DNA from: an uncultured Clostridia bacterium
Lineage (GTDB): Bacteria; Bacillota; Clostridia; Christensenellales; Borkfalkiaceae
Assembly (NCBI GenBank): GCA_944367465.1
Contig: CALVWO010000001.1
Location: 6,758-70,757 of the forward strand
Length of the DNA: 64,000 nt
Direction of reading: 5' to 3'
Shown: positions 1-35,403 of the stretch, in pieces
Layout: the number at the start of each line of letters is the position of its first letter
Numbering within the stretch: position 1 is the stretch's first letter
Position numbers and translations under genes: made by a program
Notes under the pieces: generated by a model
The model's input: only the letters and a program-made list of their open reading frames with translations
Told to the model about the DNA's origin: nothing
Database searches by the model: none

Positions 1-424
1 GCTGATTGGGTTTTTTATGAAGTTCCTCGCCCAGACCGACGCGGCGCAATGCCTCGGCAGCGCGACGGTGCCGCTCTTCACGATCCACACCGGCGATCGT
101 AAGCGCAAGCTCTACGTTGCCGAGCACAGTCTGGTGCGGGATCAGGTTATAGGACTGAAAGATAAAACCGATACGATGGTTGCGGTATACGTCCCAATCA
201 CGGTCTTTGAAATGAGTTGTGCTCGTGCCCTGTATTTCAAGATCGCCCGACGTGTAGTGATCGAGTCCTCCGATGATGTTGAGGAGCGTCGTCTTGCCGC
301 AGCCGGATGGACCGAGGATGCACACGAATTCGCTTTTGCGGAACTCGAGTGAGATACCCTTGAGCGCGTGAACGCTCCCGGACGTAACCTTGTATTCCTT
401 TGTGATGTCTGTCAGTCTGAGCAT
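1..424 (-). CDS. ABC transporter ATP-binding protein (MacB/LolD-like), N-terminal part only; gene runs off the window start
   Basis: Hand translation of the minus strand from ATG at 424-422 gives MLRLTDITKEYKVTSGSVHALKGISLEF... Walker A GPSGCGKTT and Q-loop FIFQSYNLIP are present. It is not in the ORF track because no stop lies inside the window. Confidence 0.85.
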   Translation of the reverse strand, partial: MLRLTDITKEYKVTSGSVHALKGISLEFRKSEFVCILGPSGCGKTTLLNIIGGLDHYTSGDLEIQGTSTTHFKDRDWDVYRNHRIGFIFQSYNLIPHQTVLGNVELALTIAGVDREERHRRAAEALRRVGLGEELHKKPNQ

Positions 425-489
425 TTACCTACCTCGTTTCCGATGAATTCGGGGCGCCCTTGCGGGCGCCCCGTTAATTTTATCTGCTG

Positions 490-942
490 TTATTGCCCCT
501 TCGCTTCTTTGATCGCCTTGTTGATCGCGTTGCTCAGTTCTTCGTACTGCGCAAAGAAGGACTTCATCTTTTCGTCGCCAAGAAGCTCGACCACGCGTGC
601 CATGATCGAATTTGCCTCCTTGCACTGATCTTCGAATACGGCGATCGTGTTCTCCGAAAGGCGGATATATGCAATTTTACGGTCTGTGGGAGAATCGACG
701 CGCTTGACGATCCCCTTCAGCTCGAGTTTTGTAACGATCTGAGAAATTGCCGAACGGGTAATGCCGAGGCGGCGGGCAAGCTCGGAAGAAATGATGCTCC
801 TGCCCTTTTCCTCTTCCATGATCACTTCTCTTAAAAGTCTGAACTCCGTCCTCGAAAGCTTCGCCACTCCTGCGAAGAAATCCATGTTCTCCATATCGCG
901 GACAACCTGGAAAAATTTTACGAGATATTCGTTGATTTCCAT
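490..942 (-). CDS. MarR-family transcriptional regulator
   Basis: 150 aa. Winged-HTH segment ELARRLGITRSAISQIVTKLELKGIVKRVDSPTDRKIAYIRLS. Lies directly upstream of the ABC ATPase on the same strand. Confidence 0.85.
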   Translation of the reverse strand: MEINEYLVKFFQVVRDMENMDFFAGVAKLSRTEFRLLREVIMEEEKGRSIISSELARRLGITRSAISQIVTKLELKGIVKRVDSPTDRKIAYIRLSENTIAVFEDQCKEANSIMARVVELLGDEKMKSFFAQYEELSNAINKAIKEAKGQ

Positions 943-1078
943 AAAAAACCTACACTCCTTTTGTTTTTTGCTCTTATTGGCAATCCCGTTTCTTATTATA
1001 ACATAAAAAACGTAATTGTCAACAAAATCGGATTAACTTTTTTATAAATTCACAATTCCTTCATAAAAGTTTCAGATT

Positions 1079-2197
1079 TTACTTAACAGGTCGTTTCCCC
1101 GCATACGTATACATACTACATGTTAACTTTGCGTTAAAAATATGCCTTTTTTTTGTTACTTTTCCGCCGAACGCGCGCTCGGCGCCGTCGTACGAGGAGA
1201 GAAAAACGCAACTCCAATCGGGCAGAGAACGATATACTTTTCCGAAATCTTTGTAGAGCGTGAAGAGGTCGCATCTGAGCCGTTCGCCATAGGGCGGATT
1301 GCTGATCAGAACGCCGTAGCGCTCAGCGGAGGAAAAACGGCGCATGTCCTGTACGGCAAAACGAATATCCTTTTCAACGCCCGCGCGTTTGGCGTGGAAC
1401 TGCGCGATCTCAATCGCCTGCGGGGAAATATCGGAGGCAAAGACCGGCGCGAGTTCCCCTCTCACTTCTTCCGCGGCAGCCTCCTCCCGAGCACGTGACA
1501 GCACTCCGGCTGGCGCGCATTTCCATTTTGTAAAATCGAAGTCTCGATATCTACCCGGCGCGATCCTGCGCATATAGAGCGCCGCCTCGATCGGGATCGT
1601 CCCGCTTCCGCAGAATAGATCGGCAAAGGGCTTCCCCGCATGAAAAAAGGAGCTCTCGACCATCGCCGCGGCAGTCGTCTCCCTGAGCGGCGCCTCATAA
1701 GTACGCACGCGATACCCGCGCTTATGCAGTCCGTCGCCCGAGGTATCGAGCGAGATCGTGGCGTTGTCGCGGTAAATTTCAAAATTGACGACGGCGCGCT
1801 CTCCACGCTCATCGAGTTCCGACACCCCGAGCTTTCTGCGCAGGCGTTCCACGATTGCTTTTTTGATCACGCCGCCCGTCGCTTTGATCGCCATAAGCGT
1901 ACTTTCGCGGCACTTTCCGTCCATCAGGATCTGTGTGTGCGGCGTGAAGTATTCTTCCCACGGGATCGCTGAAACGCCCTCGAACAGCGCATCGAAATCG
2001 GGCGCGCTGAACTGCTCCAGAACAAGGAGCACGCGTTCGCCCGCGCGCAGACGGACATTCAGCCGCGCAATATCTTCCCAATCCCCTTCCAGCGCGAGCC
2101 TGCCCTGTATGGCGGGACAATCGCCGTATCCGAGCGCGCGTAGCTCTCTCTTGACGGACGCCTCGACGCCCGACGCCGCGGGAATACTCAGTTTCAT
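1079..2197 (-). CDS. THUMP-domain class I SAM-dependent RNA methyltransferase (RlmL/YpsC-like)
   Basis: SAM motif I DLFCGSGTIPIEAA and motif IV NPPYGERL. Start moved to the ATG at 2197 (MKLSIPAASG), which is preceded by GGGAGGA; the track start at 2245 is less likely. Confidence 0.8.
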   Translation of the reverse strand: MKLSIPAASGVEASVKRELRALGYGDCPAIQGRLALEGDWEDIARLNVRLRAGERVLLVLEQFSAPDFDALFEGVSAIPWEEYFTPHTQILMDGKCRESTLMAIKATGGVIKKAIVERLRRKLGVSELDERGERAVVNFEIYRDNATISLDTSGDGLHKRGYRVRTYEAPLRETTAAAMVESSFFHAGKPFADLFCGSGTIPIEAALYMRRIAPGRYRDFDFTKWKCAPAGVLSRAREEAAAEEVRGELAPVFASDISPQAIEIAQFHAKRAGVEKDIRFAVQDMRRFSSAERYGVLISNPPYGERLRCDLFTLYKDFGKVYRSLPDWSCVFLSSYDGAERAFGGKVTKKRHIFNAKLTCSMYTYAGKRPVK

Positions 2198-2269
2198 ATA
2201 TCCTCCCATTTGTATCCGGGCGTAAAAAAGCGAACGCCCAGACAAGGCATCCGCATGATTACGCTCCTG

Positions 2270-2833
2270 TTATTGTTCCGATACGACGTCTGAGACCGTC
2301 GTCAGTTTTCGCCCGATCGTACAGATCCGCGTATCGCCCTTGCAGCCGCGCACGATGACATGCGGGCGCGGCCTGCCGTCATCCGACGGAACGGAAACCC
2401 GGGATCCTGCGCTTTCCGTTTCCGCCGGCAAAGTTTCCTGCGCGGGCGGGAGCGCATCGTCGGGTTCCGTCTTTTCTGTTTCGCTTGCGATCTGTTCCGC
2501 CTGCTCAGTTTTCTGCGGATTTTCCGGAGCCGTTTCCCGCTCCTCCGAAGGCGGTGCGGCGTCAGACGCGTCTTCCAACGCAACTTCTTCGCCGAACTGT
2601 TCCTTTACGGGCGGTTCCGGCAGGAGCCAGTCGGGGATATGGTCGGAAACGGGAGAAGATTGCACCTCGATGAGGCGGTTATGCGCCCGCGCGCACGGAA
2701 AGTCTTCCGTGCGGTTGCAATAGCGGCAGCGCGCGTACCGCCCGCACATATCCGCGCGGATCTTCTCGCTGTCCTTCCACTTTACAACGTCGAGATATTC
2801 CTGTAACGCCTGAAAAGTCATAACTTCCGCCAC
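2270..2833 (-). CDS. Hypothetical protein: N-terminal Cys cluster plus long acidic/Pro-rich low-complexity region
   Basis: 187 aa. Contains CGRYARCRYCNRTEDFPCARAH, then an E/P/A/T-rich stretch, then C-terminal RGCKGDTRICTIGRK. No family recognised. Confidence 0.5.
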   Translation of the reverse strand: MAEVMTFQALQEYLDVVKWKDSEKIRADMCGRYARCRYCNRTEDFPCARAHNRLIEVQSSPVSDHIPDWLLPEPPVKEQFGEEVALEDASDAAPPSEERETAPENPQKTEQAEQIASETEKTEPDDALPPAQETLPAETESAGSRVSVPSDDGRPRPHVIVRGCKGDTRICTIGRKLTTVSDVVSEQ

Positions 2834-2925
2834 CGCCTCGTCGATTTATATAGTTATATTATACGCTTTTCTGCGCTTTTTCGCAAGAGTCTTTTGGAAA
2901 AAATACAGAGAAATCAAAAAATAAT

Positions 2926-3747
2926 TCAATCTTCGTATTCATCGAGAAAGCTTCCGCGCCGCCCGCCCTTCCGCCATCCGACGATGCAGTCAAGGGCGAC
3001 GTTGTGCATGCTGCGGAAAACATTGTCCGCCGCGTCGGGATTGCTCTCCTCCATGTGCGCAAGCAGTTCCTTCATTTCGCGCCGCTTGCTCTCTTCCTCC
3101 TTGTTTGCAACGCGCTCGGTAAACCGACAGGCGCAATTGAGAAAAGAAAGATCGTTATACGCCGCCCACGCGACGATATCCCGTTCGCGGACAGCATACA
3201 GAGGCCGTATAAGCTCCATTCCCGCATGGCTTGTGGAGCGGAGTTTGGGCATCATCGTCTTGATCTCGGCGCCGTAGAACATGCTCAGGAGCGTTGTGCC
3301 GACAACATCGTCGAAATGATGCCCGAGCGCGATCTTGTTGCAGCCGCACTGTCGTGCAAATTCATAGAGGTATCCGCGGCGCATGCGGGCGCACAGGTAG
3401 CAGGGCGAGCCCGTATTCACGCTGTCGACCACAGCGAAAATATCGCTTCGGAAAATGCGGACGGGAACCTCCATGCGGGCTGCGTTTTCCTCGATGCGCG
3501 CGCGGTTCTGCGGCGCATAGCCGGGATCCATGACGATAAATTCAAGATCGAATTTCATTTCGCCGTGGCGTTGCAGTTCCTGCATGCACTTTGCAAGCAG
3601 GAAGGAATCTTTTCCGCCGGAGATGCAAACGGCGATCTTATCCCCTTCACTGACGAGATGATAGCGCTTCACGCTCTTGATAAAGGGACACCACAGTTCC
3701 TTCCGGTATTTTTTGATGATGGAGCGCTCGATTTCGGAAAAGCTCAT
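2926..3747 (-). CDS. ttcA: PP-loop ATPase, tRNA 2-thiocytidine synthase (TtcA) family
   Basis: 273 aa. PP-loop CISGGKDS. Cys motifs PCYLCARMRRG and FLNCACRF. ATGA overlap with the upstream gene. Confidence 0.75.
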   Translation of the reverse strand: MSFSEIERSIIKKYRKELWCPFIKSVKRYHLVSEGDKIAVCISGGKDSFLLAKCMQELQRHGEMKFDLEFIVMDPGYAPQNRARIEENAARMEVPVRIFRSDIFAVVDSVNTGSPCYLCARMRRGYLYEFARQCGCNKIALGHHFDDVVGTTLLSMFYGAEIKTMMPKLRSTSHAGMELIRPLYAVRERDIVAWAAYNDLSFLNCACRFTERVANKEEESKRREMKELLAHMEESNPDAADNVFRSMHNVALDCIVGWRKGGRRGSFLDEYED

Positions 3748-4604
3748 TTGCGCGCTCCGTTGAGAAAGGCATGCGCGGAATAGGCTGCCACGAGCCCTTC
3801 CCCGGCAGCCTTGACGTACTGATAGGGTCTGCCCGTCACATCTCCGGCGGCAAACAGCCCCGCAATATTCGTGGAACCGTCGCGCGCGGTCTTTACGGCG
3901 TCGCCTTCCGTCTCCAGTCCGCCCGCCAACGCAGCGGGAGGCGCCGAATTTTTCAGGAAAAAGACTCCGCTCACGGAGAGCGCGCCTTCGCCCGTGATCA
4001 GCCGCTCAACGCGCAGCCCGCCCTCGACGGCGCGCGGTTTCTCTTCATGAACGATGATGTTTTCTGACCGGAACGACGCGTTTTTATAGAGGCAGAACGC
4101 ATGGACTTTTTCGGCAAAGCCCGCGAGATACTCCACTTCCTCCCTGAACTTTTCGGAAGATACGACGGCGGCGATCGTTTTACCGCGGTAGAGTGCGCCG
4201 TCGCAAACGGCGCAATAGCTCACGCCGCGCCCGAGGAAATCGCGCTCCCCTTTTACGGCGCCCGCCGTCTCCACGCCCGTGGCGAGTATAACGGCTTTCC
4301 CCTGATACATTATGTCACCGACTGTGACGGTGAACGGATCGCCGGCATAAATGCCGTCTGCACGTCCCTGCGTAAAGGAGATATCCTCATGCTCCATCTG
4401 CGCTGCGAGACGGGCGGAAAATTCCTTTCCGTCGCCGATGAGTGCGGGAAAATTCCGAACATATTCCGCGCGGGTGAGCTTGTCGCCGAACAGCTCGGCG
4501 CCCAGCCAGAGACAGCTGCGTTTCAGACTTTTTAAGGTGAGCGCGGCGGTGTAACCTGCGATGCCGCCTCCCACAACGATCACATCGTATAGCGTATTTT
4601 TCAT
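3744..4604 (-). CDS. Thioredoxin-reductase-like FAD-dependent pyridine nucleotide-disulfide oxidoreductase
   Basis: 286 aa. FAD fold YDVIVVGGGIAGYTAA, redox CAVCDG, second dinucleotide motif, C-terminal GLFAAGDV. Confidence 0.8.
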   Translation of the reverse strand: MKNTLYDVIVVGGGIAGYTAALTLKSLKRSCLWLGAELFGDKLTRAEYVRNFPALIGDGKEFSARLAAQMEHEDISFTQGRADGIYAGDPFTVTVGDIMYQGKAVILATGVETAGAVKGERDFLGRGVSYCAVCDGALYRGKTIAAVVSSEKFREEVEYLAGFAEKVHAFCLYKNASFRSENIIVHEEKPRAVEGGLRVERLITGEGALSVSGVFFLKNSAPPAALAGGLETEGDAVKTARDGSTNIAGLFAAGDVTGRPYQYVKAAGEGLVAAYSAHAFLNGARK

Positions 4605-4635
4605 GCCGCAAGTATATCACGGCGCGGCACGCTTG

Positions 4636-5295
4636 TCAAGCGAGATCGACTTTTGCGAATCGTCTGACGCTCACGCGGTACGCAGCCAGATTGCACAGGA
4701 TATAGCAAACGACCCCTGCCGCAAGTACCGGAAGCTGTAAAAGCAGTTCGTGCGGGGAAATGCCGTCCCAGAATGAGAGCGCCGGAACGTGCGCCAACGT
4801 TTCCATAACGAGAACGACTGCAAGAACGGGCAAGATCGCCCTGACAAACGACGCGCCGACTTTGTACGCCGTTTTATAATATCCGGTAAAGAAAACGAGA
4901 TCGTACAGCGCAAAGGCGATCAGCATACAGCCGTAAAAAGCGATATTTGCATCGATGCCGGCGGCATTTCCGTACGGGAAAAGAAACGTACGCAGAACGG
5001 CAAACGGAAGAGAGACAACGATCTGGCTGAGCTGTGTGAAACACGCAAGGGCAAATTTCCCCTTCACGATCTCGTTCCGCGGGATCGGCAGAAGCGCGGA
5101 AAACAGCACATCGTTCGTCTCACGACCGTATTGGATCGTAAGCATGCTTGCAAGACATCCGAACAAAAATACGACTCCGTACGGATAGTTCGGAACGATG
5201 ACAAGCGCGCCGAGCGAGACAAAAATGTACAGAGTAGGATGCGCCGCAAGTCGCAATTCTTTATATATCAGGTTCTTTAACGACGCCCTCTTCAT
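4636..5295 (-). CDS. ABC-2 type transporter permease
   Basis: Polytopic hydrophobic protein immediately downstream of an ABC ATPase. Start set at ATG 5295 (MKRASLKNLIYKEL). Confidence 0.7.
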   Translation of the reverse strand: MKRASLKNLIYKELRLAAHPTLYIFVSLGALVIVPNYPYGVVFLFGCLASMLTIQYGRETNDVLFSALLPIPRNEIVKGKFALACFTQLSQIVVSLPFAVLRTFLFPYGNAAGIDANIAFYGCMLIAFALYDLVFFTGYYKTAYKVGASFVRAILPVLAVVLVMETLAHVPALSFWDGISPHELLLQLPVLAAGVVCYILCNLAAYRVSVRRFAKVDLA

Positions 5296-5992
5296 ACAGA
5301 AAATAGCCCTCCAACCCAGACATGGTACCATGTAAATTTGTGCAGTTACTTAAATACTCCGATTTCGGCGCGTTTCGTACGACGGAGCCGCCGCGGAGAT
5401 AGACAATGCTGTCGGCGCATTGCTCGAGGTCGGTAACGATCTGCGTGGAAAAGAGCACGCCGCATCCGTCGCGTTTCGCATGATCGCGGATCATACTGAG
5501 GATCTCCGCTCTCGCAACGGGATCGAGCCCGCTTGTCGGTTCGTCGAGCACAAGCAGTTTCGCCCTGTGCGAACATGCAAGCGCCAACAGAAATTTCACC
5601 TTCATGCCGTTGGAAAGTTCACGGAAACGCTTGCGTTCATCCAGAGAAAAATCATCGATAAAGCGTCGGTATGCCACGTCATCCCACATGCGGCAGAATC
5701 GTGCATAGACGCCTGCGATCATGCCGATCGGTTTATACGGATAGATTTCTGTTCCGCCGAATACGATACCGAGCTGTTCTCGGTCCGATTCGCTCTGTTT
5801 TCTGCCGCAGATGCGGACTGTTCCAGAGTCTGCGGCGGCGAGCCCCGCTATGATCCGGAGCAGCGTGCTCTTTCCGGCGCCGTTCCTGCCCATCAGTCCG
5901 ATGATGCGGCCCTGCGCAACGGAAAGAGAAACGTTATTCAAGGAAAAAGCGGGAAATTTTTTGCAGATCCCTTCTGCTTCAAGCAGATTCAC
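5261..5992 (-). CDS. ABC transporter ATP-binding protein
   Basis: 243 aa. Walker A GRNGAGKST, signature LSNGMKVK, Walker B LLVLDEPTSGLD. Confidence 0.9.
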   Translation of the reverse strand: MNLLEAEGICKKFPAFSLNNVSLSVAQGRIIGLMGRNGAGKSTLLRIIAGLAAADSGTVRICGRKQSESDREQLGIVFGGTEIYPYKPIGMIAGVYARFCRMWDDVAYRRFIDDFSLDERKRFRELSNGMKVKFLLALACSHRAKLLVLDEPTSGLDPVARAEILSMIRDHAKRDGCGVLFSTQIVTDLEQCADSIVYLRGGSVVRNAPKSEYLSNCTNLHGTMSGLEGYFLYEEGVVKEPDI

Positions 5993-6447
5993 TTCTCCTT
6001 CTCCTCCGCGTGTTCCATGATTTTTGCCGCGTAAGACAGCATGAGCTCGCTCTCCACGAGCGCGATGCCGCGTTCGCCCGCCGTCTCATTGCCGAGTACG
6101 ACGAGACGGCTTCCTGGGCTGAGACGGAATATCTCCCTTGCGCGTTTCGGAAGCACGATCTGCCCGCGCTCCCCCACCGTCGCAATTCCGAAGATGTGTT
6201 TCCCCTTGGGCGGAACGGGATATCCGAGCGCACGTTCGTCGTGCGAAACGAGCGCGTCCAGCGACGTTCCGTAAAATTCCGCAAGGGCAGCCGCATGTGC
6301 GAGGTCGGGCGTGCTTTCTCCCGTCTCCCATTTTCCCACCGCCTGCCGCGTTGCGCCCACGCGATCGGCGACCTCTTCCAGCGTGAGCCCCTTATCGCGG
6401 CGGAGGCGTGAAAGATTACAGGCGAGGTTGGACATACGATTTTTCAT
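5989..6447 (-). CDS. XRE-family HTH regulator fused to an AbrB/SpoVT-like domain
   Basis: HTH segment LTLEEVADRVGATRQAVGKWETGESTPD. C-terminal SpoVT/AbrB-like GERGQIVLPKRAREIF. Start at ATG 6447 is preceded by AAGGAG. Confidence 0.8.
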   Translation of the reverse strand: MKNRMSNLACNLSRLRRDKGLTLEEVADRVGATRQAVGKWETGESTPDLAHAAALAEFYGTSLDALVSHDERALGYPVPPKGKHIFGIATVGERGQIVLPKRAREIFRLSPGSRLVVLGNETAGERGIALVESELMLSYAAKIMEHAEEKEK

Positions 6448-6644
6448 ACTTGTTCTCCTTTTCATACATTGTATCATATTCCGCCCGGGCTTTCAACCAA
6501 CCGCCGCTTACAGGATATGTTTGCCACAGTTGCCTCTCATCTGTCCGGATTATACGTGATATTACTATAATTATATGGAAAGAATGTCCGTACGTATAAG
6601 ATTTATTTGACTTTCGCAGGTGCCAAAATTATAATATACTTTGT

Positions 6645-7193
6645 ATGGAGAACGGGAAAACAAAGAGCGCGGGGCGGAAGATTGCCGTGCTCGGCATACT
6701 GACAGGATGCGGGCTCGCCGCCTTTATGCTGGAGAGCCTTATTCCAATGCCCTTTTTACCCGGAGCCAAGCTCGGATTTGCGAACATTTTTTCGTTGCTT
6801 GCCCTGCTTTTATACGGGCTGCCCGAGGCGCTCATCGTCGTGCTTGTACGCACTTTTCTGGGAAGTCTGTTTGCGGGAAACCTCTCCATGCTGCTTTACA
6901 GCCTTACGGCGGGCGTCATTTCGACTGCCGTCTCCCGTATGCTGCTGTATGCGCTCCCCCGCGTCAGTTTTACAGCGATCTCCGTGGCGGGCGCGGTCGT
7001 TCACAATCTCGTACAGTTGTTCGTCTATTGCGGGCTCACGGGCACGATGCTTTTGTTCGTTTACGCACCCTATCTGTGCCTGATGGGCGCGGGTTCGGGC
7101 GTTATCATCGGTCTGATCGTCGCATGGACGCTGAAAGCGCTGCCGAAAAAGTTCTTTTCCGGGGCGCAGGACAGAAAGGAGGAAATCAAGTGA
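6645..7193 (+). CDS. Gx transporter family membrane protein (heptaprenyl diphosphate synthase component I-like)
   Basis: 182 aa with about 5 TM segments. Pattern LESLIPMPFLPGAKLGFANIFSLLAL. Its stop overlaps the rnfC GTG start. Confidence 0.65.
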   Translation: MENGKTKSAGRKIAVLGILTGCGLAAFMLESLIPMPFLPGAKLGFANIFSLLALLLYGLPEALIVVLVRTFLGSLFAGNLSMLLYSLTAGVISTAVSRMLLYALPRVSFTAISVAGAVVHNLVQLFVYCGLTGTMLLFVYAPYLCLMGAGSGVIIGLIVAWTLKALPKKFFSGAQDRKEEIK

Positions 7194-8482
7194 AGGCAAT
7201 CAAGGGCAAGCCCTTTTTCCGCGGCGTAAAACTTGCGGGGCATAAGGCGCCCACGGAGAACCTGCCCGTTGAACGGGCGGAGCCGCGCGGAGATGTCGCC
7301 ATTCCGCTTCGTCAGCATGCCGGCGCTCCGGCGGAGGCGATCGTCGCGGCGGGGCAGCACGTAATGCGCGGAGAACTCATCGCGAGAGCGGCGGGCGCCG
7401 TATCCGCGAATGTTCACGCCAGCGTTTCCGGCGAAGTCAAAGCGGTGGAAGAACGCGCGGACGGTCGCGGCGGACGCTGCGTACATATTGTGATCGCGCC
7501 CGACAAAGTGTGCGAGGATGCATTCCTGCCTCCCCTTTCCGCACCCGATGCGGAAGCGATCGTAGAGCGCATCGAGGCATGCGGCATCGTCGGGATGGGC
7601 GGCGCAGGATTTCCTGCGCACGTCAAACTCAGACCGCCCGTACCCGTCGATACGCTCATCGTGAACGGCGCGGAATGCGAACCTTATCTCACCTGCGACG
7701 ACGTTCTCATGAAGCACCGCAGTAAAGAGATCGTGCGCGGCGCAAAGTACATGGCGAAGGCGCTCGGCGTGAACAACATCATCGTTGCCATCGAGCGCAA
7801 TAAGCCCGAGGCGATCGCTCTGTTCGAGCAGACCGACCTTACCGTCGTCGCGCTGAAAAAACAATATCCGATGGGCGCGGAAAAACAGCTCATATACTGC
7901 TGTACCGGGCGGAAGGTCCCGCTCGGGAAACTTCCCGCTCATGCCGGCGTTATCGTACAGAACGCAGGCACCGCTTTTGCGGTATGCGAAGCGGTCGAAC
8001 GCGGAAAACCGCTCTTTGAGCGCATCGTCACCGTATCGGGCGGCGGGATCGCGTCTCCGAAAAATCTGATCTGTCCCGTCGGCATGCCCCTTTCCGATCT
8101 GATCGATGCGTGCGGCGGCGTAAAAGACGCCGTAAAGTTTGTTGCGGGCGGTCCCATGACGGGTACGGCGCTGACGGGTGCGGAAAGCGTCGTCACGAAG
8201 ACGACGAGCGGATTTTTGTTCCTGACCAGGGAAGAGACGAATGCCGACGCGCCCACGAACTGCATCAACTGCGGAAAATGTGCCGATGTATGCCCCATGA
8301 AACTCATGCCCATGCAGACGGAATTTTATACGAATGCAAAAGAGTATGAAAACGCCGATAAATACGGCGGCGTGCTGAGCTGCATCGAATGCGGCGCATG
8401 CACATATATCTGCCCTGCGCGCCGTCCGCTTGCTCAGGCGATCAAGACGGCGAAAGAGAATTTACGGAGGAAAAAAGCATGA
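7190..8482 (+). CDS. rnfC: Rnf electron transport complex subunit C
   Basis: GTG start at 7190 (VKAIKGKPFFRGVKL). Two ferredoxin motifs, CINCGKCADVCP and CIECGACTYICP. First gene of an rnfCDGEAB array. The 613-aa track ORF is a 5' over-extension. Confidence 0.9.
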   Translation: MKAIKGKPFFRGVKLAGHKAPTENLPVERAEPRGDVAIPLRQHAGAPAEAIVAAGQHVMRGELIARAAGAVSANVHASVSGEVKAVEERADGRGGRCVHIVIAPDKVCEDAFLPPLSAPDAEAIVERIEACGIVGMGGAGFPAHVKLRPPVPVDTLIVNGAECEPYLTCDDVLMKHRSKEIVRGAKYMAKALGVNNIIVAIERNKPEAIALFEQTDLTVVALKKQYPMGAEKQLIYCCTGRKVPLGKLPAHAGVIVQNAGTAFAVCEAVERGKPLFERIVTVSGGGIASPKNLICPVGMPLSDLIDACGGVKDAVKFVAGGPMTGTALTGAESVVTKTTSGFLFLTREETNADAPTNCINCGKCADVCPMKLMPMQTEFYTNAKEYENADKYGGVLSCIECGACTYICPARRPLAQAIKTAKENLRRKKA

Positions 8483-16906: not shown

Positions 16907-16993
16907 GCCGCTGTGGTGGAATTGGCAGACGCGCTGGACTCAAAATCCTGTGGTAGTGATACCGTATCGGTTCGACCCCGATCAGCGGCACCA
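16907..16993 (+). tRNA. tRNA-Leu(CAA), intact; its 3' 55 nt lie inside the attL repeat
   Basis: Acceptor GCCGCTG/CAGCGGC plus ACCA. Anticodon loop CTCAAAA. Long variable arm. T-arm GGTTCGACCCC. Confidence 0.85.
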
Positions 16994-17031
16994 TCTAAAT
17001 TCGGTCATTTTTGAGCTGTTTCGCTTAAAAA
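16939..17031 (+). repeat. attL: 93-bp direct repeat (tRNA-Leu from the anticodon loop to the 3' end, plus 38 nt downstream)
   Basis: Identical to 35248-35340 by base-by-base comparison. Imperfect similarity continues for about 55 nt further (…TTTCAGC[A/G]AATTGAAATATATAGCAT). Confidence 0.9.
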
Positions 17032-17467
17032 TGGTCGTTTTTTTTCTTTTTTTCAGCAAATTGAAATATATAGCATAATTCACATTTCCCCAATTTTCCC
17101 CAATCACCGAAAATCCGTTTTTGCTCCCGCACCTTTCCTTGGGTGCGGTTTTGATTTTCTGCGCCGGCACCGCGCCCTGGAAGAACCGCGGCGCGGCGGG
17201 CGGCGCCGCTCCCCTCTCTTCCTGATCGGCGCCATAGGGATAACCGCTTGCAGGACATTCCGCGACCCTCGGGCGCAGTCCTGATCTATCCGCTTGCGCG
17301 GGCGCGCCCGCGCCGTGCTGCAAATCCAAGCCGCCCGCCGATCGGACGATTCCGGGGGAACGCAGCGAGCACATAACACGCCCTGCGGGCGGCTTCCGAT
17401 CTTTCCTTCGTACGGACGGGGGCGGAGCGCCGTCCTATGATTACAGAATACTTAGATACTATACTTA

Positions 17468-17698: not shown

Positions 17699-18742
17699 TC
17701 ATGTTCGCCGCCTCCCCCTTTTCTCGGGATAGCAGTCGCACAAATGACCGTCCGGAAGATAGCCTGTATCAGAGCACTTCGGACATATATATTTCGGCTC
17801 CAGATCTTCGAACGTCATGTTCATGGCTGTCAGACGCTCGGCTTTGACGGCAGCGGCGATCTTCTGCTTTCGGATCAGCTCCTGCAAGCCCGGAAGCGAG
17901 AACGCCTCCGCTTTGCCGATTCGGATATCCAGACTGCGATACTCCCGTTCTGCGTCTGCAAAGCGGGCGTCCTCCATAGCCCGTGCCCGCATTTCCTCCG
18001 CGCGGCTTGTGGCGGCGTTTCGGCGCAAAGCATAGAATCTCTCTCGCTCCGCTCTCGCATCCGCGTTCCGCGTTCTTTCGTCTTTGCCTTTTGCGCGCCT
18101 GACGATCTCCTCGCGCTTTGCGCGCAGGAGCTTTCCGTTGACATGGAATTTTGCCCGTTGGTAGTTGTTTCTTGCCGCGCCCTCAACGTATACGAGCCCC
18201 ATCGCCTTCAGGCGGTCGATACTCTTGATGACGGTATCCTTCCCGAACGGCAGGCGGCGCGCGATCCCGCGGCAGGATCCCGACCATGCCTTTTTGTTCT
18301 TGGAGAATGAAATGAGATAGCTTAGCACAAGGACTTCGTTCTTCGTCAGATAGCGCAGCACGCCGTCCGCCTCGAATTGCGCATGATAGAGCCACTCCTC
18401 GATGTATAAATACGGCTCGTCCTCTTTGATCCCTTTGCTCTGATACTCATGCACGTTATCCCCGCGCTCGGCGAGATCGTTATCCAGGACGACGCGGATG
18501 GCACGCGATACAGACGCGCGGGAGATGCGGTATCGCTTGTTGAGCTCGGAATATGTAAAATCGCTCTTATGTCCATCGGCGGAAAAACTGAAAATGGCAG
18601 AGCACACCAAAAGCGCGGCACCGCAGAGCTTTCGCTCGCGCCCGTTCCGCATGACCGTGCGTCCCATAAGACTGTACGGGACGCGCACAAACCCGCTGTG
18701 CGAGCCTCCCGCCCGATTTAATTTTTCCGCCGTATTCATCAT
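17699..18742 (-). CDS. Replication initiator/organizer-like DNA-binding protein (two wHTH-like segments plus a C-terminal zinc ribbon)
   Basis: 347 aa. Contains YRISRASVSRAIRVVL and CRGIARRLPFGKDTVIKSIDRLKAMGLVYVEG. An R/A/E-rich coiled stretch is followed by CPKCSDTGYLPDGHLCDC, which resembles the N-terminal zinc ribbon of DnaI/DnaC-type loaders. No AAA+ motifs. Confidence 0.5.
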   Translation of the reverse strand: MMNTAEKLNRAGGSHSGFVRVPYSLMGRTVMRNGRERKLCGAALLVCSAIFSFSADGHKSDFTYSELNKRYRISRASVSRAIRVVLDNDLAERGDNVHEYQSKGIKEDEPYLYIEEWLYHAQFEADGVLRYLTKNEVLVLSYLISFSKNKKAWSGSCRGIARRLPFGKDTVIKSIDRLKAMGLVYVEGAARNNYQRAKFHVNGKLLRAKREEIVRRAKGKDERTRNADARAERERFYALRRNAATSRAEEMRARAMEDARFADAEREYRSLDIRIGKAEAFSLPGLQELIRKQKIAAAVKAERLTAMNMTFEDLEPKYICPKCSDTGYLPDGHLCDCYPEKRGRRRT

Positions 18743-20187: not shown

Positions 20188-20338
20188 TCCGTTTATTTTC
20201 TGCGCGATTTTGAAAGTAATGACAAAATTTTCAAACGAATTTCGCCCCATCGGGCGAAATTCGCCTTCGGTTCGTCTCGAATTTGAAAATTTTTAATGTC
20301 ATTCCTTCTTTTCAAAATCGCGCAAATACAAATAAACG
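20188..20338. repeat. 151-nt long imperfect inverted repeat (compound hairpin) in the intergenic region after the Zot-like ATPase gene
   Basis: Hand pairing found these stems: 20188-97 with 20329-38 (10 bp), 20201-14 with 20309-22 (14 bp), 20217-22 with 20297-302 (6 bp), and 20223-34 with 20281-92 (12 bp). There is also an inner perfect 11-bp hairpin, GAATTTCGCCC, loop CATC, GGGCGAAATTC (20236-20261). Confidence 0.85.
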
Positions 20339-20390: not shown

Positions 20391-21671
20391 TTACGCCGTG
20401 CGCCGTTTGGGCTTGTCGTCCTGATCGCGGACGCGCACTTCATCTTCGCCCACCAAAAGCGTTTCCCACGTCGCAAGATCGATGGGTTTATCCTTCGCCT
20501 GATACATTTTCCACCACGTTCTGCCATCGTAGTCCGCCATACCGCGGCGCGGAAAAATGTATGTACCGCGATCGAACACGGTACCCTGCCCGTTTGCTCC
20601 GCCATGCGTATACGGAATTTTCCGAAATCCGATCGTTTCAAGATATTTCTCTCGATAAAAATACTTTTCACCGATATACTGCGCCTTTTCACGGCTGATT
20701 TTGCCCTCTTGCAGCCGCCGAAAATAGCGATTTTTCTGCTTTTGAAAGATCTTCCACGCAAAATTCGGTGCCATGATCGTTTCCTGCCGCTGCAAATTGA
20801 TGTTATAATCCGTCACGCCGCGTATCTGGACGGCGTTTCCCGTCTCCCGCTGATCGGTATTGATCAACGTAAAGTCGCCGAAATGACGGATAAAACGATA
20901 TGTTGCCTGTTCTGCGAGCGACATATCCCGCGAACGGGACGCGCCGCTATCCAATCCCGATTCGTCCTTAAAAAGCACGGAATATTCGGGTACCCTCGTG
21001 ACCTGCGCCTCTACCTCGGGCGTCATAACGTAACTGAACCGCCCGAGAAGGTCGCGGAGCGGGATCGTAGAGACAAGACATGGAATATACCGCGCCTCCC
21101 GTTCTGCGTAGTAAATGTAGCTCTCTTCCAATGCCGCAAACTTTTCGATGGCGTCCGTGTTGCCCTCGAGCTTCCAGCGCGTCACCATGCCGTGTTGCAG
21201 GAAATAGTCGCTTTTCAGCTTCGCCCAACGGCTTGCAGCCACGGCGATCGCGATGTTTGCGCCACCAGAAAACGTCTTGCCACACCCCGGAACGCCCGTA
21301 AGCGTTACCACGCGCGCCGATCCGAGATAGTCCATCGCCTGAACGCGCGCGACGTTCTCGTAATATTTGCATCGGACAACGTTGACGAATGTTTTGATGA
21401 AAAACACCAGCGCGACGATCTGCACCACCAATGCGACGAGCCACAATACCACGTCCGCAATGAAGGAGACTTCCCACCGCCAACGGAAAAAGATCGAGAC
21501 ATCGAGAAAGGAATAGAGAAGATTCTGCCAGCCGTGATAATAATCCTTCGTCACGAAGTACGCTGCCACAAAAACCACGGCGGGAATGTAGTTATACCGC
21601 CTCGTGTTCTTGTACGGCTCCAAAAGCCGGGCTTGTTGCCGTGCAAACCACTCATCGCTGTGCGTTTTCAT
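20391..21671 (-). CDS. Zot/pI-like P-loop NTPase with an N-terminal transmembrane region
   Basis: 426 aa from ATG 21671. Two or three TM helices at roughly residues 30-100. Motifs in order: GVPGCGKT, STIPLRD, VLFKDESG, FIRHFGDFTLINTDQ. This order parallels the Zot/pI motifs GxxGxGKT, TN.., hhhDE, HRxxGxDhhhhTQ. Confidence 0.55.
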   Translation of the reverse strand: MKTHSDEWFARQQARLLEPYKNTRRYNYIPAVVFVAAYFVTKDYYHGWQNLLYSFLDVSIFFRWRWEVSFIADVVLWLVALVVQIVALVFFIKTFVNVVRCKYYENVARVQAMDYLGSARVVTLTGVPGCGKTFSGGANIAIAVAASRWAKLKSDYFLQHGMVTRWKLEGNTDAIEKFAALEESYIYYAEREARYIPCLVSTIPLRDLLGRFSYVMTPEVEAQVTRVPEYSVLFKDESGLDSGASRSRDMSLAEQATYRFIRHFGDFTLINTDQRETGNAVQIRGVTDYNINLQRQETIMAPNFAWKIFQKQKNRYFRRLQEGKISREKAQYIGEKYFYREKYLETIGFRKIPYTHGGANGQGTVFDRGTYIFPRRGMADYDGRTWWKMYQAKDKPIDLATWETLLVGEDEVRVRDQDDKPKRRTA

Positions 21672-21811
21672 AACCTTACCCCGACGAATACCCCGAGAAG
21701 GAATATGATCGCCGCGCACACCGCGATCAATACGACGACGTTGACCTTACGATCTGCGATCTTTTCCTTCTTTTTCGGTTGTTCCTGTTCCTTCTGTTCC
21801 CTGGTTTCCAT
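21668..21811 (-). CDS. 47-aa single-TM peptide, translationally coupled (ATGA) to the Zot-like ATPase
   Basis: Hand translation gives METREQKEQEQPKKKEKIADRKVNVVVLIAVCAAIIFLLGVFVGVRL. It is below the ORF-track size cutoff and fills the gap between neighbouring genes exactly. Confidence 0.55.
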   Translation of the reverse strand: METREQKEQEQPKKKEKIADRKVNVVVLIAVCAAIIFLLGVFVGVRL

Positions 21812-21814
21812 ATA

Positions 21815-23029
21815 TCACAAGTATTTTTCGTAGCGGTCATCGATGGATGCGACAAATTCCTTGTCGTACTTATCGATGGGAACGCTCCAAGCGCTTTCCA
21901 ATGCGTTCCAATGCCATCCGCGTTTCTTCAACGCGTAAATGAGCTGCGGTTTCGGGCGTGTGGTGAACTTGATGAATACGCGCTCGCCCGCGTCGATCCG
22001 CTTGCGGTAAGCGTTCAGATTGTCCGTTTCGAGGAGTTTCTGCGCCTTCGGCGCGCCCTGATAGGTGCCCGCCTTGATCTTGTCGTAGATCTTCGCCGCC
22101 GTCGTGTTCTTGCGGAAACGGTATTTTTTATCCATTTCGTCGTAAAGTTCGACAAACCGCGCGGGATCGTACTGCGCGATGGGCGTCAAAGCGTTTGCGA
22201 TCGTCGTGGGCGATGTGAACCACCCGCGCGCGAGAGCTTCTTTGAAATGCTCTTCTGCCCGTTTCGCATCCTTTGCGCTCGTATCCTCATATTGACGCTT
22301 GCTTTCTCTAACGCTCTCTTCGATCTTTTCGAACCACGTCACAAAATCATGCGCGTCGCGGAGGATCTGTTCGCTCTTGTCGTATTTTTTCGCATTGTAT
22401 CGCGCCGGTCCCGCAACCGTGATGGGAACATGCTGTGCTTCGAGCGAAAGTTTACGCGTCCAACGCTTATGGATCTGATCGATGATCTGCTGTTTTTTGC
22501 TGTCTGCAATATCCCAGCCCAAAACCCGATTAACGTAACGCTGATAATCCCGCGCGGAATTATCGCCGCGATTGAACATGCTGTTCCCGTTTGCCGTTTC
22601 AATGTCCCGCCGGTTCAGCTCGGGGATCACGACGGTGCTTTTCTGTTCGGCGGGCTGTGTCTCCCGTTTCATCGGCGCGGTGAGTTCCGTTTTTCCCCCG
22701 CTCACGACCGGAACGAGCAAAGCAGATACTGCTTTCGGGAGCGCCGCCTGCGGCTTTCTCGGCTCCAAAATGGGGCGCATAGGAGCGGAGGCAGTCTTTT
22801 TCTTCGAGGACTTCTTGCCCTTTGACTTCCCTTCTTTCCGGCGAGCACGCTCCTCCTTGCGATACGCGTTCCACGCCGCCCATGCCTCGCGCGGGCTCAT
22901 ACCGGATGTACTCATCCCGACACCCTCCAAAAGCCCGTACGGACGGCGCCTTAGGTCGCTTTTGACTTGCAGCATGCGGAGCTGCGTCGCCTGCTCCTCT
23001 TTTTCCTCCTCTTTAATGACTTTTCTCAT
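21815..23029 (-). CDS. Hypothetical 404-aa protein: Lys-rich N-terminal region plus a helical C-terminal domain
   Basis: Start ATG at 23029 (MRKVIKEEEKEE), preceded by GGAGGGG; the track start at 23065 is TTG. Contains KEGKSKGKKSSKKK and C-terminal LKKRGWHWNALESAW. Confidence 0.6.
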   Translation of the reverse strand: MRKVIKEEEKEEQATQLRMLQVKSDLRRRPYGLLEGVGMSTSGMSPREAWAAWNAYRKEERARRKEGKSKGKKSSKKKTASAPMRPILEPRKPQAALPKAVSALLVPVVSGGKTELTAPMKRETQPAEQKSTVVIPELNRRDIETANGNSMFNRGDNSARDYQRYVNRVLGWDIADSKKQQIIDQIHKRWTRKLSLEAQHVPITVAGPARYNAKKYDKSEQILRDAHDFVTWFEKIEESVRESKRQYEDTSAKDAKRAEEHFKEALARGWFTSPTTIANALTPIAQYDPARFVELYDEMDKKYRFRKNTTAAKIYDKIKAGTYQGAPKAQKLLETDNLNAYRKRIDAGERVFIKFTTRPKPQLIYALKKRGWHWNALESAWSVPIDKYDKEFVASIDDRYEKYL

Positions 23030-23058
23030 GGATATGCCCCTCCGTTTTTCAAATTCTA

Positions 23059-23087
23059 TTGACAAACTTACAGAAATTGCGTATAAT
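23059..23087 (+). promoter_or_regulatory. Perfect sigma-70 consensus promoter (TTGACA, 17-nt spacer, TATAAT) pointing against the minus-strand operon
   Basis: TTGACA at 23059-23064, 17-nt spacer, TATAAT at 23082-23087. No credible plus-strand ORF lies downstream. Confidence 0.6.
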
Positions 23088-30701: not shown

Positions 30702-31520
30702 TCAAGAACCGTCGCTCAGGCGATTCGTTCCGCCTTCCGGCAGGACATCTGCCGCGGTCAGTTCCGTTCCCTGCGTTCCTTCGTCACGAACGTACAGCGC
30801 CCACTCGCGCCCGAATTTCTCTTCGAGACGGCGGGCAGCGTTCCATCGCTTGATCTCCTCCTCGTTTTGCCATGCGCAGACGCAGATCTCGCCGTTCTCC
30901 CTGAGCCCGCTGCCGCCGCAGAACGGGCATTTTTGTACGGGCTCGAATATCCTGACGTCGATCCCCGCCCGCTCGCACGCCTTCTTGCGCTCGCCGAGAA
31001 TCTGCATATATTCACGGATCAGCTTGCTCACGCGCACATGATCTTCTGCGGCTTCCGCATCGGCAAGCGCTGCCTCCGCCTCTTTTTTTGCCTTTTCGTT
31101 TCCTGCGAACGCGGGATAGGTTTCCGCCAGCTTTATGCGCGCCGCCGCAGCGTCGCGTTTGCGCTTGCTTTCCATCCCCTTGTAGTAGGCTGTCACTTCC
31201 GATTTCAGAAGCGGGATCTCCTCCGCCTTCCCGGGCATGACCTCCTGCGCCCGACAGAATGAAAAATGAGCGGAAAGGCGCTCCAACGTGACGGGGCGCT
31301 CCGTAAAGATGTTCTTCTTCCCGCCGAGCGTCTCGACCGCGTACAGCTCCCCTCTCCGCTCAGAGTAGTCGCATGCTGAAATTGTCACTTTGCCGATCTC
31401 TTCTTCGGCTGTTCCGTAAAGGGCATACACCGCGCCGACACCATAGTTAAAGTACAGCCGTCCATCGTTCCCCACGATAGGCTGTAACCCACTGCTTTTC
31501 TTCGCTCGCGATGCTGCCAT
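30702..31520 (-). CDS. Hypothetical protein with a coiled A/E/K-rich region and a CPFCGGSG..C.C zinc ribbon
   Basis: 272 aa. Contains QKCPFCGGSGLRENGEICVC, the same ribbon type as the C-terminus of the rep-like protein at 17699-18742. Confidence 0.55.
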   Translation of the reverse strand: MAASRAKKSSGLQPIVGNDGRLYFNYGVGAVYALYGTAEEEIGKVTISACDYSERRGELYAVETLGGKKNIFTERPVTLERLSAHFSFCRAQEVMPGKAEEIPLLKSEVTAYYKGMESKRKRDAAAARIKLAETYPAFAGNEKAKKEAEAALADAEAAEDHVRVSKLIREYMQILGERKKACERAGIDVRIFEPVQKCPFCGGSGLRENGEICVCAWQNEEEIKRWNAARRLEEKFGREWALYVRDEGTQGTELTAADVLPEGGTNRLSDGS

Positions 31521-32668: not shown

Positions 32669-33022
32669 ATGAGATTGAAAGATCTTCGCGAAGAACATAA
32701 TCTTACTCAGAAAGAACTTGGCGCTCTTGTAGGCGTTGCGCAGTCTAATATCAACCGTTGGGAAAATGGAACCGTCTGCCCTTCCGCAGATTTTGTTGTT
32801 AAACTTGCTGATTATTTCGATGTCTCAACCGACTATCTTCTCGGGCGTACGGACGAACTCGGCGCAGTCATCACCCCTTTCCCCCCTTCAGATGATTACA
32901 CAGATGAGGAGAAAAAGCTGATCGCGGACTACCGCGAGCTCACGCCCCCTTTGAAACGTATGATCCAGGAGACCCTCAAAACATGGAAAAGCTCAGAGAT
33001 CAACACGAAAAAACTTTCTTGA
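32669..33022 (+). CDS. XRE-family HTH regulator (repressor-like)
   Basis: 117 aa. Contains MRLKDLREEHNLTQKELGALVGVAQSNINRWENGTVCP. RBS GAGGAGG. Confidence 0.85.
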   Translation: MRLKDLREEHNLTQKELGALVGVAQSNINRWENGTVCPSADFVVKLADYFDVSTDYLLGRTDELGAVITPFPPSDDYTDEEKKLIADYRELTPPLKRMIQETLKTWKSSEINTKKLS

Positions 33023-33709: not shown

Positions 33710-34115
33710 AAACGCGCTCGCTTTTTTCTTTGAAAAAAGTGAGCGAAATTCTACTTTTGTTTTGTTATAAAATTAACTCCGAGGGCGCACTTGCCCGAAA
33801 GGAGTATTTTATGACGTTTCAAGAACAAACCGAGCTGTTAATGACAGCCATCCAAAGCCTGATGGCACTTTACAGGGATATTACAGAAATTGACCGCCCC
33901 TTCGTGCGCGTGTCTTTTTCTGAACTAAAAAAAATCCCGAGCCATCGACTGCGGCTGACGCCGCGCAGAGTGCCCAGGCGGTTTTGCTCGACTTCACCGC
34001 CGAGCTGGAAAAGCGGAAAAGCCGCATGGAGCAAAACTCCATGCAGCCGATCGCGCCGCCGGATCATACGGCAAAAACGGAATTTTTGGAATTTACACCA
34101 AAGGAGATTTCAAAA

Positions 34116-35117
34116 ATGCCGACATTTTTTAGAAAAGAATTTCGCTTAAAAGGAGGTACCGTCGCACACATAAGAGTAAAGCCAAACGGAAGTTACGAGA
34201 TCAGATACCGCCGCGGCGGTATCAATCTCAGTGTATCGGCAAAAACAGTTGAAGCAGCCAAAGAACGATTTATCGAAAAACTCTGTGAGGCAAAAACGGA
34301 CAGCCTAAATAGCCGTACCCTTTTCGGGCAATATGCAACGCAGTGGCTTGAAGTTGTCAAAAAACCACAAGTAAAAGAAACGACTTACGAAGATTATAAG
34401 GTCATGTTCCGCGTTCATATATTTCCGAAATTCGGAAAAATGAGGATGCGCGACATAAAGCCCATCGATGTGCAGAAGCTCATTAACTTCATCTGCGAAA
34501 AGAAAACATTTCGTAACGCTGAAAAAGTCTATGTTCTCTTGAACGCCGTATTCAATTTTGCTGTTGCAGAAAATGTAATAGCGAAATCACCCATGGCACT
34601 CATTAAAAAGCCCGTCCATGAGCCGAAGCACGGACAGGCTTTTACGGTAGACGAGGAGCGGCGTCTCGTAGAAAAATGTCTTGCGGAAAACACACTCTAC
34701 GGTTACGCATTTATCTTTATGCTTTATACGGGGCTGCGTCGTTCAGAGCTATCGTCTGTTACGATCCAATCACAATGGATCACGCTGTATACCGCCAAGA
34801 ACAGACAAGGAACAAACCCAAAAATGCGTAAAATTCCGATCTCCCCCATGCTGCGACCATTTATTCCATTGATGAATCAAAAGATTTTTCAGTTAGACAT
34901 GGGGAATATGTCACGCACCTTCGCGAAATATTTCCCTGGGAGGCATCTTCACGAACTGCGCCATACGTTTATCACAAGATGTCAGGAATGTGGGATCTCT
35001 CGTGAATTGACTTCCCTTTGGGCGGGACACAAGGCAGACAACACGATGACGTCTAATGTCTATACGCATTTTTCCGAAGAGTTCCAACTTGGAGAAATTC
35101 AAAAGCTGCGATACTAA
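34116..35117 (+). CDS. int: Tyrosine recombinase/phage integrase
   Basis: Start MPTFFRKEF is preceded by AAGGAG. The frame is open from 33924. Catalytic region GLRRSEL ... HELRHTFITRC ... NVYTHF. Lies 130 nt from attR. Confidence 0.9.
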   Translation: MPTFFRKEFRLKGGTVAHIRVKPNGSYEIRYRRGGINLSVSAKTVEAAKERFIEKLCEAKTDSLNSRTLFGQYATQWLEVVKKPQVKETTYEDYKVMFRVHIFPKFGKMRMRDIKPIDVQKLINFICEKKTFRNAEKVYVLLNAVFNFAVAENVIAKSPMALIKKPVHEPKHGQAFTVDEERRLVEKCLAENTLYGYAFIFMLYTGLRRSELSSVTIQSQWITLYTAKNRQGTNPKMRKIPISPMLRPFIPLMNQKIFQLDMGNMSRTFAKYFPGRHLHELRHTFITRCQECGISRELTSLWAGHKADNTMTSNVYTHFSEEFQLGEIQKLRY

Positions 35118-35247: not shown

Positions 35248-35340
35248 CTCAAAATCCTGTGGTAGTGATACCGTATCGGTTCGACCCCGATCAGCGGCAC
35301 CATCTAAATTCGGTCATTTTTGAGCTGTTTCGCTTAAAAA
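35248..35340 (+). repeat. attR: second copy of the 93-bp repeat (contains a non-functional 55-nt 3' fragment of tRNA-Leu)
   Basis: Identical to 16939-17031. The sequence 5' of 35248 does not match the tRNA. Confidence 0.9.
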
Positions 35341-35403
35341 CGACCGTTTTTTTCTTCTTTTCAGCGAATTGAAATATATAGCATCATTGAAATTATTTTT
35401 TGC

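Follow-up and report, generated by a model that had tools for sequence, protein, structure and literature searches.

The stretch of DNA analyzed here, referred to as the window, comprises 64,000 nucleotides (nt) of contig CALVWO010000001.1 from an uncultured gut Clostridia bacterium of the Borkfalkiaceae (Christensenellales), whose genome assembly is 1.58 Mb in size and 93% complete. At 20391..21671 on the minus strand lies a gene for a P-loop ATPase of 426 amino acids (aa), which is predicted to be membrane anchored and which we assign, on profile evidence, to the Zot/pI superfamily. The gene is located within an 18.3-kb element integrated at a tRNA-Leu(CAA) gene, where it is the final gene of a long minus-strand operon of about 11 kb encoding secreted, membrane-anchored, and basic proteins. 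Directly ahead of it lies a 47-aa open reading frame (ORF; 21668..21811, minus strand), whose product is rich in Lys and Glu in its N-terminal part and has a single transmembrane (TM) segment in its C-terminal part.

The ATPase gene and its product

The ATPase ORF extends from an ATG at 21671 to a stop at 20391. A GTG at 21719 was rejected as an alternative start codon; homologues align from ATG 21671, and this codon was taken as the start because the homologues begin there with a shared M-K-x-H-S-x-x-W-F motif. The first 26 residues (21594..21671, minus strand) form a family-specific motif, H-S-x-x-W-F ... E-P-x-x-N-T-x-x-Y, in which T23 and Y26 are invariant and H4, W8, P19, and N22 nearly invariant in an alignment of 34 close relatives (alignment A1). 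In an AlphaFold2 (AF2) model of the protein, with an overall predicted local distance difference test (pLDDT) score of 83.5, this motif reaches pLDDT values of 90 to 93. It is followed by a hydrophobic region predicted to lie in the membrane (residues 27 to 99; 21375..21593, minus strand), which was delimited from the sequence, its hydropathy, and the AF2 secondary structure. The region contains three hydrophobic segments (residues 27 to 41, 48 to 62, and 68 to 99), and the AF2 model places two long helices at residues 19 to 56 and 68 to 113.

Behind this region, the Walker A motif GVPGCGKT (residues 126 to 133; 21273..21296, minus strand) is intact, and its residues G126, P128, G129, G131, K132, and T133 are invariant in A1. 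Walker B (D236-E237; 20961..20966, minus strand) is followed by a Zot-type R-H-F-G ... T-D-Q ... R motif containing Q274 and R284. In 100 diverse family members, K132 is invariant and D236, E237, Q274, and R284 are nearly invariant; in A1, none of the five varies. Two variants of the element differ in this gene by 52 synonymous and 6 nonsynonymous changes, giving a ratio of nonsynonymous to synonymous substitution rates (dN/dS) of 0.03. The ATPase gene is under strong purifying selection, and its product is, as judged from these motifs and the profile comparisons below, a catalytically intact P-loop protein of the Zot/pI branch of the FtsK-HerA superfamily.

The ATPase family and its relationship to Zot/pI proteins

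The ATPase has 104 close homologues, and the five that carry a source name are hypothetical proteins. The family as a whole comprises at least 162 clusters at 50% identity, which come from uncultured Clostridia where a source is named. Its genome matches fall mainly within the Christensenellales, and relatives of the window ATPase occur in metagenome-assembled genomes of Christensenellaceae, Borkfalkiaceae, Ca. Scatosoma, and other Clostridia. Direct scans of the window ATPase against Pfam and PHROG gave no family match of its own. Among the 100 diverse family members, 18 matched the Pfam Zot family (PF05707) at an E value of ≤0.01, and three of nine members scanned individually scored above the PF05707 cutoff of 20.3 bits (P0134, 36.3; P0118, 25.8; P0112, 20.6). 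The Zot domain of these three proteins begins at residue 115 to 124, behind the TM segments.

For profile-profile comparison, A1 and a wider family alignment (A2) were aligned using hhalign with a canonical Zot alignment (A3) consisting of five Clostridia proteins found with PF05707 and M13 pI. The family profile A2 matched A3 with a probability of 97.5% (E = 5.9e-12) over an alignment spanning Walker B through the R-H-x-G, Q, and R motifs, and A1 matched A3 with a probability of 94%. Against M13 pI alone, A2 gave 65% and A1 failed, at 1.6%; the link to canonical Zot therefore needed both A2 and the six-sequence Zot alignment. A hidden Markov model (HMM) of the canonical Zot alignment matched 28 of 250 family proteins, with alignments beginning at their Walker A motifs. 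Foldseek searches with the AF2 model found Inoviridae Zot models in BFVD and, as weaker matches in the PDB, Zot (2r2a), the B204 NTPase of Sulfolobus turreted icosahedral virus (STIV), RecA, HerA, and FtsK.

Other P-loop families were represented by fainter signals. AAA_22 was matched weakly in 2 of the 100 family members, while the window ATPase reached 19.3 bits against the IstB model NF038214 (cutoff, 200), in the P-loop only, and 15.7 bits against nSTAND3 (cutoff, 27.2). An NCBIfam scan of the ATPase returned P-loop noise only, and a PDB sequence search with the family profile returned only Walker A matches to AAA+ proteins. KAP, AAA_22, and transposition helpers of the IstB type, which a preliminary description of this locus had named as assignments that would speak against its reading of the gene as a Zot-like NTPase, were rejected, as their matches were confined to the P-loop and fell far below cutoff. 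The Zot-like assignment itself is supported at the superfamily and profile levels by the PF05707 matches within the family, the hhalign result, and the Foldseek matches; at the level of the Pfam threshold, it does not extend to the window protein.

Domain order and membrane topology

The hydrophobic segments of the window ATPase all precede Walker A (residues 27 to 99 versus 126 to 133), as the preliminary description had noted, and none lies behind it. This order is the rule across the family, in which the length of the membrane region varies among subfamilies: proteins of about 375 aa have one short hydrophobic segment, often with a central G-L-P-T, those of about 425 aa, including the window ATPase, have two long helices, and those of about 490 aa have about four hydrophobic segments. 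The inverted order is thus real, family-wide, and unannotated. It had also been presented as a departure from Zot/pI proteins in general, and here a precedent changes the picture. ORF2 of Spiroplasma phage SpV1-R8A2B (X51344; Plectroviridae, Tubulavirales; locus L025), translated with code 4, has TM helices at residues 12 to 56 and Walker A at residue 82, and it matches the canonical Zot HMM with an E value of 2.4e-17. Since this protein shows the same order, the order of the window ATPase is not new, and an N-anchored arrangement is already present in a classified family of the Tubulavirales.

Alignment of SpV1 ORF2 with the family profile gave a probability of 95.5% (E = 1.6e-8) over 122 columns. 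Both have N-terminal TM segments, then Walker A, and then the Zot-type Walker B, R-H-F-G, Q, and R motifs, and both come from monoderm hosts without a secretin. The relationship is nonetheless remote, since a tblastn search gave no match in the phage collection from which SpV1 was taken. SpV1 ORF2 (337 aa) lacks the 26-residue N-terminal motif of the window family, its helical insert of about 50 residues between Walker A and Walker B, and most of its conserved C-terminal region of about 130 residues (I-G-F-R ... Y-D-x-R). The genomes differ as well: SpV1 is an 8.3-kb phage of Mollicutes, whereas the element in the window, 18.3 kb long and integrated at a tRNA gene, encodes a tyrosine integrase, resides in a member of the Christensenellales, and does not conform to the plectrovirus genome type (about 4.5 to 8.3 kb, Mollicutes host).

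The comparison with Ff pI (M13 gene I) and PF05707 yields likenesses in the ASCE (additional strand, catalytic E) P-loop core, in the motif series after Walker B, and in the position of the gene at the end of a morphogenesis operon. In Ff pI, however, the P-loop lies at residues 7 to 15 and is followed by a TM segment and a periplasmic domain that contacts the secretin pIV. The window ATPase does not have this Ff-type architecture; its TM region comes first, no TM segment follows the ATPase domain, and there is no secretin. Closer in terms of host are the Zot proteins of Firmicutes gut inoviruses, which share the host class and the Zot core. These have been described as stand-alone domains without the C-terminal fusion of Proteobacteria phages (Clade-1, Sugimoto et al. 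2021, PMC8530359), in genomes of 5.6 to 9.4 kb with recognizable coat genes (PMC8530359; Enterocloster inoviruses, PMC10061712). The canonical Clostridia Zot proteins are 200 to 240 aa in length, and their P-loop, at residue 7, is followed by a weak hydrophobic patch at most, whereas members of the window family are 370 to 490 aa long and N anchored and occur in elements without a recognized coat gene. The domain order is therefore really different from that of canonical Clostridia Zot.

Basic residues flank the hydrophobic region on both sides (R24 and R25 before it; K93, R100, and K102 after it), and the four-segment subfamily shares an even segment count with the two helices of the window ATPase. 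The simplest reading consistent with the flanking charges, the AF2 helices, and the even segment count is a hairpin. The two helices would thus most likely form a hairpin in the membrane, with the N-terminal motif and the ATPase domain both on the cytoplasmic side. Under this topology, the segment of the single-segment subfamily would need to be a re-entrant hairpin.

The integrated element and the proposed role of the ATPase

The element is bounded by a left attachment repeat (16939..17052, plus strand), which overlaps the 3' part of tRNA-Leu(CAA) (16907 to 16993), and a right attachment repeat (35248..35361, plus strand) that is 95% identical to the left copy. A tyrosine integrase gene (33984..35117, plus strand; XerD/XerC-type models, E = 2.5e-8) lies close to the right repeat. 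XRE-type regulators and a DnaD/HTH_36-type replication protein are encoded at the other end. Within the operon, one large product of 652 aa has a signal peptide and a C-terminal anchor. Related loci are organized in the same way: the ATPase gene is always the last of an operon for uncharacterized basic and membrane proteins, the element is small in size, an integrase is present where the locus reaches the element end (L003, L004, and L011), and XRE regulators occur in L001, L003, L009, L010, and L011. Pfam and PHROG scans of ten element proteins found no conjugation or tailed-phage family.

Directly 3' of the ATPase stop lies a compound hairpin of about 150 nt (20188..20338, minus strand), which folds as single-stranded DNA (ssDNA) with −69.6 kcal/mol (z = −9.4). 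In seven loci (L003, L011, L012, L028, L029, L033, and L034), the 200 nt that follow the ATPase gene contain extended hairpins of 120 to 150 nt with z values of −6.6 to −10.7, and L001 has a weaker one (z = −5.1). The hairpin sequences have diverged among loci. The structure may be a packaging or origin signal, or it may be a large terminator.

We consider it reasonably probable that the ATPase is the assembly and export motor of a non-tailed, filamentous-phage-like integrated element of a monoderm host. By analogy with Ff pI and plectrovirus ORF2, the N-terminal helical region would tether the ATPase to the cytoplasmic membrane, where it would most likely form a membrane-bound oligomer. Driven by ATP, this oligomer would assemble the element DNA with membrane-inserted structural proteins and extrude both through the envelope. 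A counterpart of the C-terminal periplasmic domain of Ff pI would not be needed, because a monoderm host has neither an outer membrane nor a secretin. A similar gene set has been described for the Dehalococcoides element IME1, which has an integrase, a repressor, the pI-like ATPase HOG04, and a block of TM and signal-peptide proteins, and which was proposed to be a filamentous or budding virus overlooked by standard virus classifiers (bioRxiv 10.64898/2026.09.15.751708). Judged from the description only, IME1 and the window element are alike in being integrative and in encoding an integrase, a repressor, a pI-like ATPase, and a membrane-protein block; the host of IME1 belongs to another phylum, and the IME1 ATPase gene is upstream of the membrane-protein block rather than at its end.

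Several results weigh against this assignment of function. The window ATPase has no PF05707 match at E ≤ 0.1 and does not reach the gathering score, and its link to Zot is transitive or profile based. Among the proteins of the element, none was recognized as a major coat protein, an ssDNA-binding protein, or a rolling-circle Rep. A tblastn search of 50,697 phage records at E ≤ 0.01 found no relative, and a scan of IMG/VR with two peptide patterns gave 590 pattern matches, none of which was confirmed. The topology, moreover, is ambiguous, as the N-terminus and the ATPase domain of the single-segment subfamily would lie on opposite sides of the membrane unless the segment is a re-entrant hairpin.

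The gene content of the element, which includes an integrase, a Rep-like protein, and numerous small membrane proteins but no recognizable capsid or coat gene, would also suit a conjugation-like integrative element, whose membrane-anchored DNA translocase pumps DNA into a neighboring cell without forming a particle. Models for such a translocase are TraB of actinomycete integrative and conjugative elements and TcpA of Clostridium pCW3, in which, as in the window ATPase, TM helices at the N-terminus precede a P-loop domain of the FtsK-HerA type; FtsK and HerA motors are, albeit weakly, also on the Foldseek list. The profile-profile similarity nevertheless goes to Zot and plectrovirus ORF2, and FtsK_SpoIIIE (PF01580) is not among the 18 families that the 100 diverse family members match at E ≤ 0.01, whereas Zot is matched in 18 members. 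The ten element proteins scanned include no relaxase, VirB4, VirB6, or cell wall hydrolase family, and the 652-aa protein fits a role in adsorption or as a spike better than it fits the small Spd (spread) proteins of the actinomycete elements. Transfer by conjugation is, on this evidence, an unlikely function for the ATPase.

The structural matches bear on a further alternative, in which the protein is the genome-packaging ATPase, with a built-in anchor, of a membrane-containing, non-filamentous virus, which would be either a pleomorphic one that buds or an icosahedral one whose membrane is internal. The Foldseek matches to the STIV B204 NTPase (E about 1e-2) and to A32-like ATPases are about as strong as those to Zot, 18.3 kb would be a large size for an inovirus, and the element encodes several anchored ectodomain proteins. 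It has also been argued that pI-like ATPases together with hydrophobic proteins fit budding viruses too (bioRxiv 10.64898/2026.09.15.751708). We regard packaging of this kind as improbable: the sequence profiles point to Zot/pI and plectrovirus ORF2 in particular, the proteins scanned gave no match to a double-jelly-roll or other capsid family, and a long hairpin downstream of the ATPase gene is more typical of ssDNA filamentous-phage signals.

The 47-aa ORF upstream of the ATPase

The preliminary description had drawn attention to a 47-aa ORF with a charged N-terminus, one TM segment, and an ATGA overlap with the ATPase start, and all of these features are present in the sequence. The ORF begins 3 nt past the stop of the upstream 416-aa gene and exactly occupies the 143-nt gap between this gene and the ATPase gene, with its TGA overlapping the ATPase ATG (GTT ATG A). 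Its product consists of METREQKEQEQPKKKEKIADRKV followed by a single TM helix; the Lys/Glu-rich part is 23 residues long, the clean TM helix about 24, and four residues lie behind it. ATGA coupling is not special to this pair, as several such overlaps occur in the operon. The ORF is not preceded by a Shine-Dalgarno sequence, which most genes of the operon have, and its product would be translated by termination-reinitiation within the operon.

Scans of the ORF against Pfam, PHROG, and NCBIfam gave nothing or P-loop noise only. Of 5.8 billion proteins, the only ones related to its product are likewise 47 aa long, with identities of 98% and 89%, and they are encoded in elements that share at least 95% DNA identity with the window element. 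The ORF is intact, in the same position, and 47 codons long in L021, L022, and L026. Between the window and L021, it differs by 2 synonymous and 5 nonsynonymous changes, the latter all conservative, giving a ratio of nonsynonymous to synonymous polymorphism (pN/pS) of 0.69 against 0.03 for the ATPase, with too few changes to decide; there is no clear purifying selection on the ORF.

In a survey of 15 other loci, no equivalent ORF was found upstream of the ATPase gene at any locus with 33 to 56% ATPase identity. In L009, the homologue of the 416-aa gene directly overlaps the ATPase start (ATGA), while the ATPase gene of L010, L011, L012, and L001 is preceded by an ORF without a TM segment or simply by a gap, L005, L029, and L031 have a zinc-ribbon protein, and L003 and L033 have an unrelated protein of 134 or 137 aa with an N-terminal TM segment. 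As these occupants differ among loci, the slot upstream of the ATPase is variable. The 47-aa ORF appears to be inserted between genes that are normally direct neighbors, because the 416-aa homologue usually adjoins the ATPase gene and, in L009, overlaps it.

These findings do not support the partnership of the pI/pXI type, with stoichiometric coexpression, that the ATGA overlap had suggested. pXI is the product of an in-frame internal restart of gene I, whereas the 47-aa ORF is a separate gene without similarity to the ATPase; it occurs only in near-identical copies of the element, and the conservation in homologous loci that such a partnership would lead one to expect was absent at every more distant locus. 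A role as the major coat protein was likewise rejected: the basic segment lies at the N-terminus, only four residues come after the TM helix, no Shine-Dalgarno sequence precedes the ORF, and related elements lack the ORF.

On balance, we lean toward the 47-aa ORF encoding a real small membrane protein, which would probably be a lineage-specific, tail-anchored accessory rather than a core partner of the ATPase. That it is nonfunctional, either as a spacer open by chance or as no more than the ribosome-binding or coupling region for the ATPase gene, is a serious contender that we hold to be somewhat less than even. To this the missing Shine-Dalgarno sequence, the pN/pS value beside that of the adjacent ATPase gene, the absence of homologues beyond the near-identical lineage, the absence of the ORF from all of the 33-to-56% loci, and the direct overlap in L009 all lend weight. 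The 652-aa gene of the same operon, however, is certainly real and likewise starts without a Shine-Dalgarno sequence, relying on coupling. Furthermore, a spacer would not readily account for the exact fill of the gap from 3 nt past one stop to the ATGA, for the clean TM helix, or for a frame that stays open at 47 codons, with five conservative changes, in three variants down to 95% DNA identity.

SpV1 offers a comparable case, which likewise speaks for a functional protein. Its ORF10 (7289 to 7492) encodes 67 aa with a polar N-terminal part and a C-terminal TM segment, and it abuts ORF2 (7492..232) with a TAATG overlap. This layout, seen in one plectrovirus, parallels that of the 47-aa ORF and the ATPase gene, and the parallel is intriguing. 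It would fit an export motor of monoderm hosts that is a two-part complex of an N-anchored Zot ATPase and a small tail-anchored protein, encoded upstream and translationally coupled; the partners would be the 47-aa ORF here, ORF10 in SpV1, and the 134/137-aa TM proteins in L003 and L033. Sequence conservation among these partners would fail because they are non-homologous, fast-evolving replacements of pXI. We rate this proposal as a long shot.

Distribution and significance of the family

In 400 genomes sampled evenly from the class, the ATPase family was present in 2 of 399 scored genomes, the window's own included, and canonical PF05707 proteins in 6 of 400. Since four candidates were scored per genome, these counts are floors. 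With at least 162 clusters, the family is large, and in the resources searched it has no curated assignment or functional name. The elements of gut Christensenellales did not turn up in the virus collections searched because the family scores too low for the Pfam Zot threshold on which the detection of inoviruses depends. As an N-anchored, plectrovirus-type branch of pI/Zot, the family can serve as a marker for a hidden class of integrated elements, and it shows that evolution has been flexible in where motors of the pI type carry their membrane anchor.

The toxin activity of cholera-phage Zot is held in its C-terminal region. The window ATPase lacks any equivalent of the region that Ff-type pI/Zot proteins carry at the C-terminus, and the label "Zot" thus implies no toxicity here.

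Other genes and features of the element

The 416-aa gene upstream of the 47-aa ORF (21815..23065, minus strand) encodes a basic protein that had no match in Pfam, PHROG, NCBIfam, or the PDB. Its true start may be an internal ATG. Homologues of 380 to 447 aa are found upstream of the ATPase gene in L009 (8832 to 10004), L010, L012, L021, L026, and L027 (a 397-aa ORF upstream of 9995), and the C-terminus of the family is conserved (...TRPKPQLIYALKKRGWHWN..AWSVP...KYL). In the gap between this gene and a 111-aa gene, a perfect TTGACA-17-TATAAT promoter consensus (23059 to 23087, plus strand; 12 of 12 matches) points against the operon.

Two element proteins carry zinc ribbons of the C-P-x-C ... 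C-x-C type (17699 to 18742 and 30702 to 31520). They match the N-terminal part of PRK06835 (DnaC/DnaI-like; E = 4e-8 and 1e-3, respectively) and are without its ATPase domain. Homologues of the second are the zinc-ribbon proteins that lie directly upstream of the ATPase gene in L005, L029, and L031. Near the integrase end, a pair of small genes (32983 to 33709) looks, as judged from their sequences only, like toxin-antitoxin cargo of the nucleotidyltransferase/HEPN type; L001 has a ParE/YoeB-Phd pair inside the operon in place of such a pair, and in L010 two DNA methyltransferase genes directly follow the ATPase gene.

The element at L026 encodes an ATPase 99% identical to that of the window and the same 652-aa protein. 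Its anchored ectodomain genes, of 329, 433, and 221 aa, differ from those of 348, 345, and 110 aa at about 26.6 to 29.2 kb in the window, which suggests mosaic exchange within the surface-protein block.

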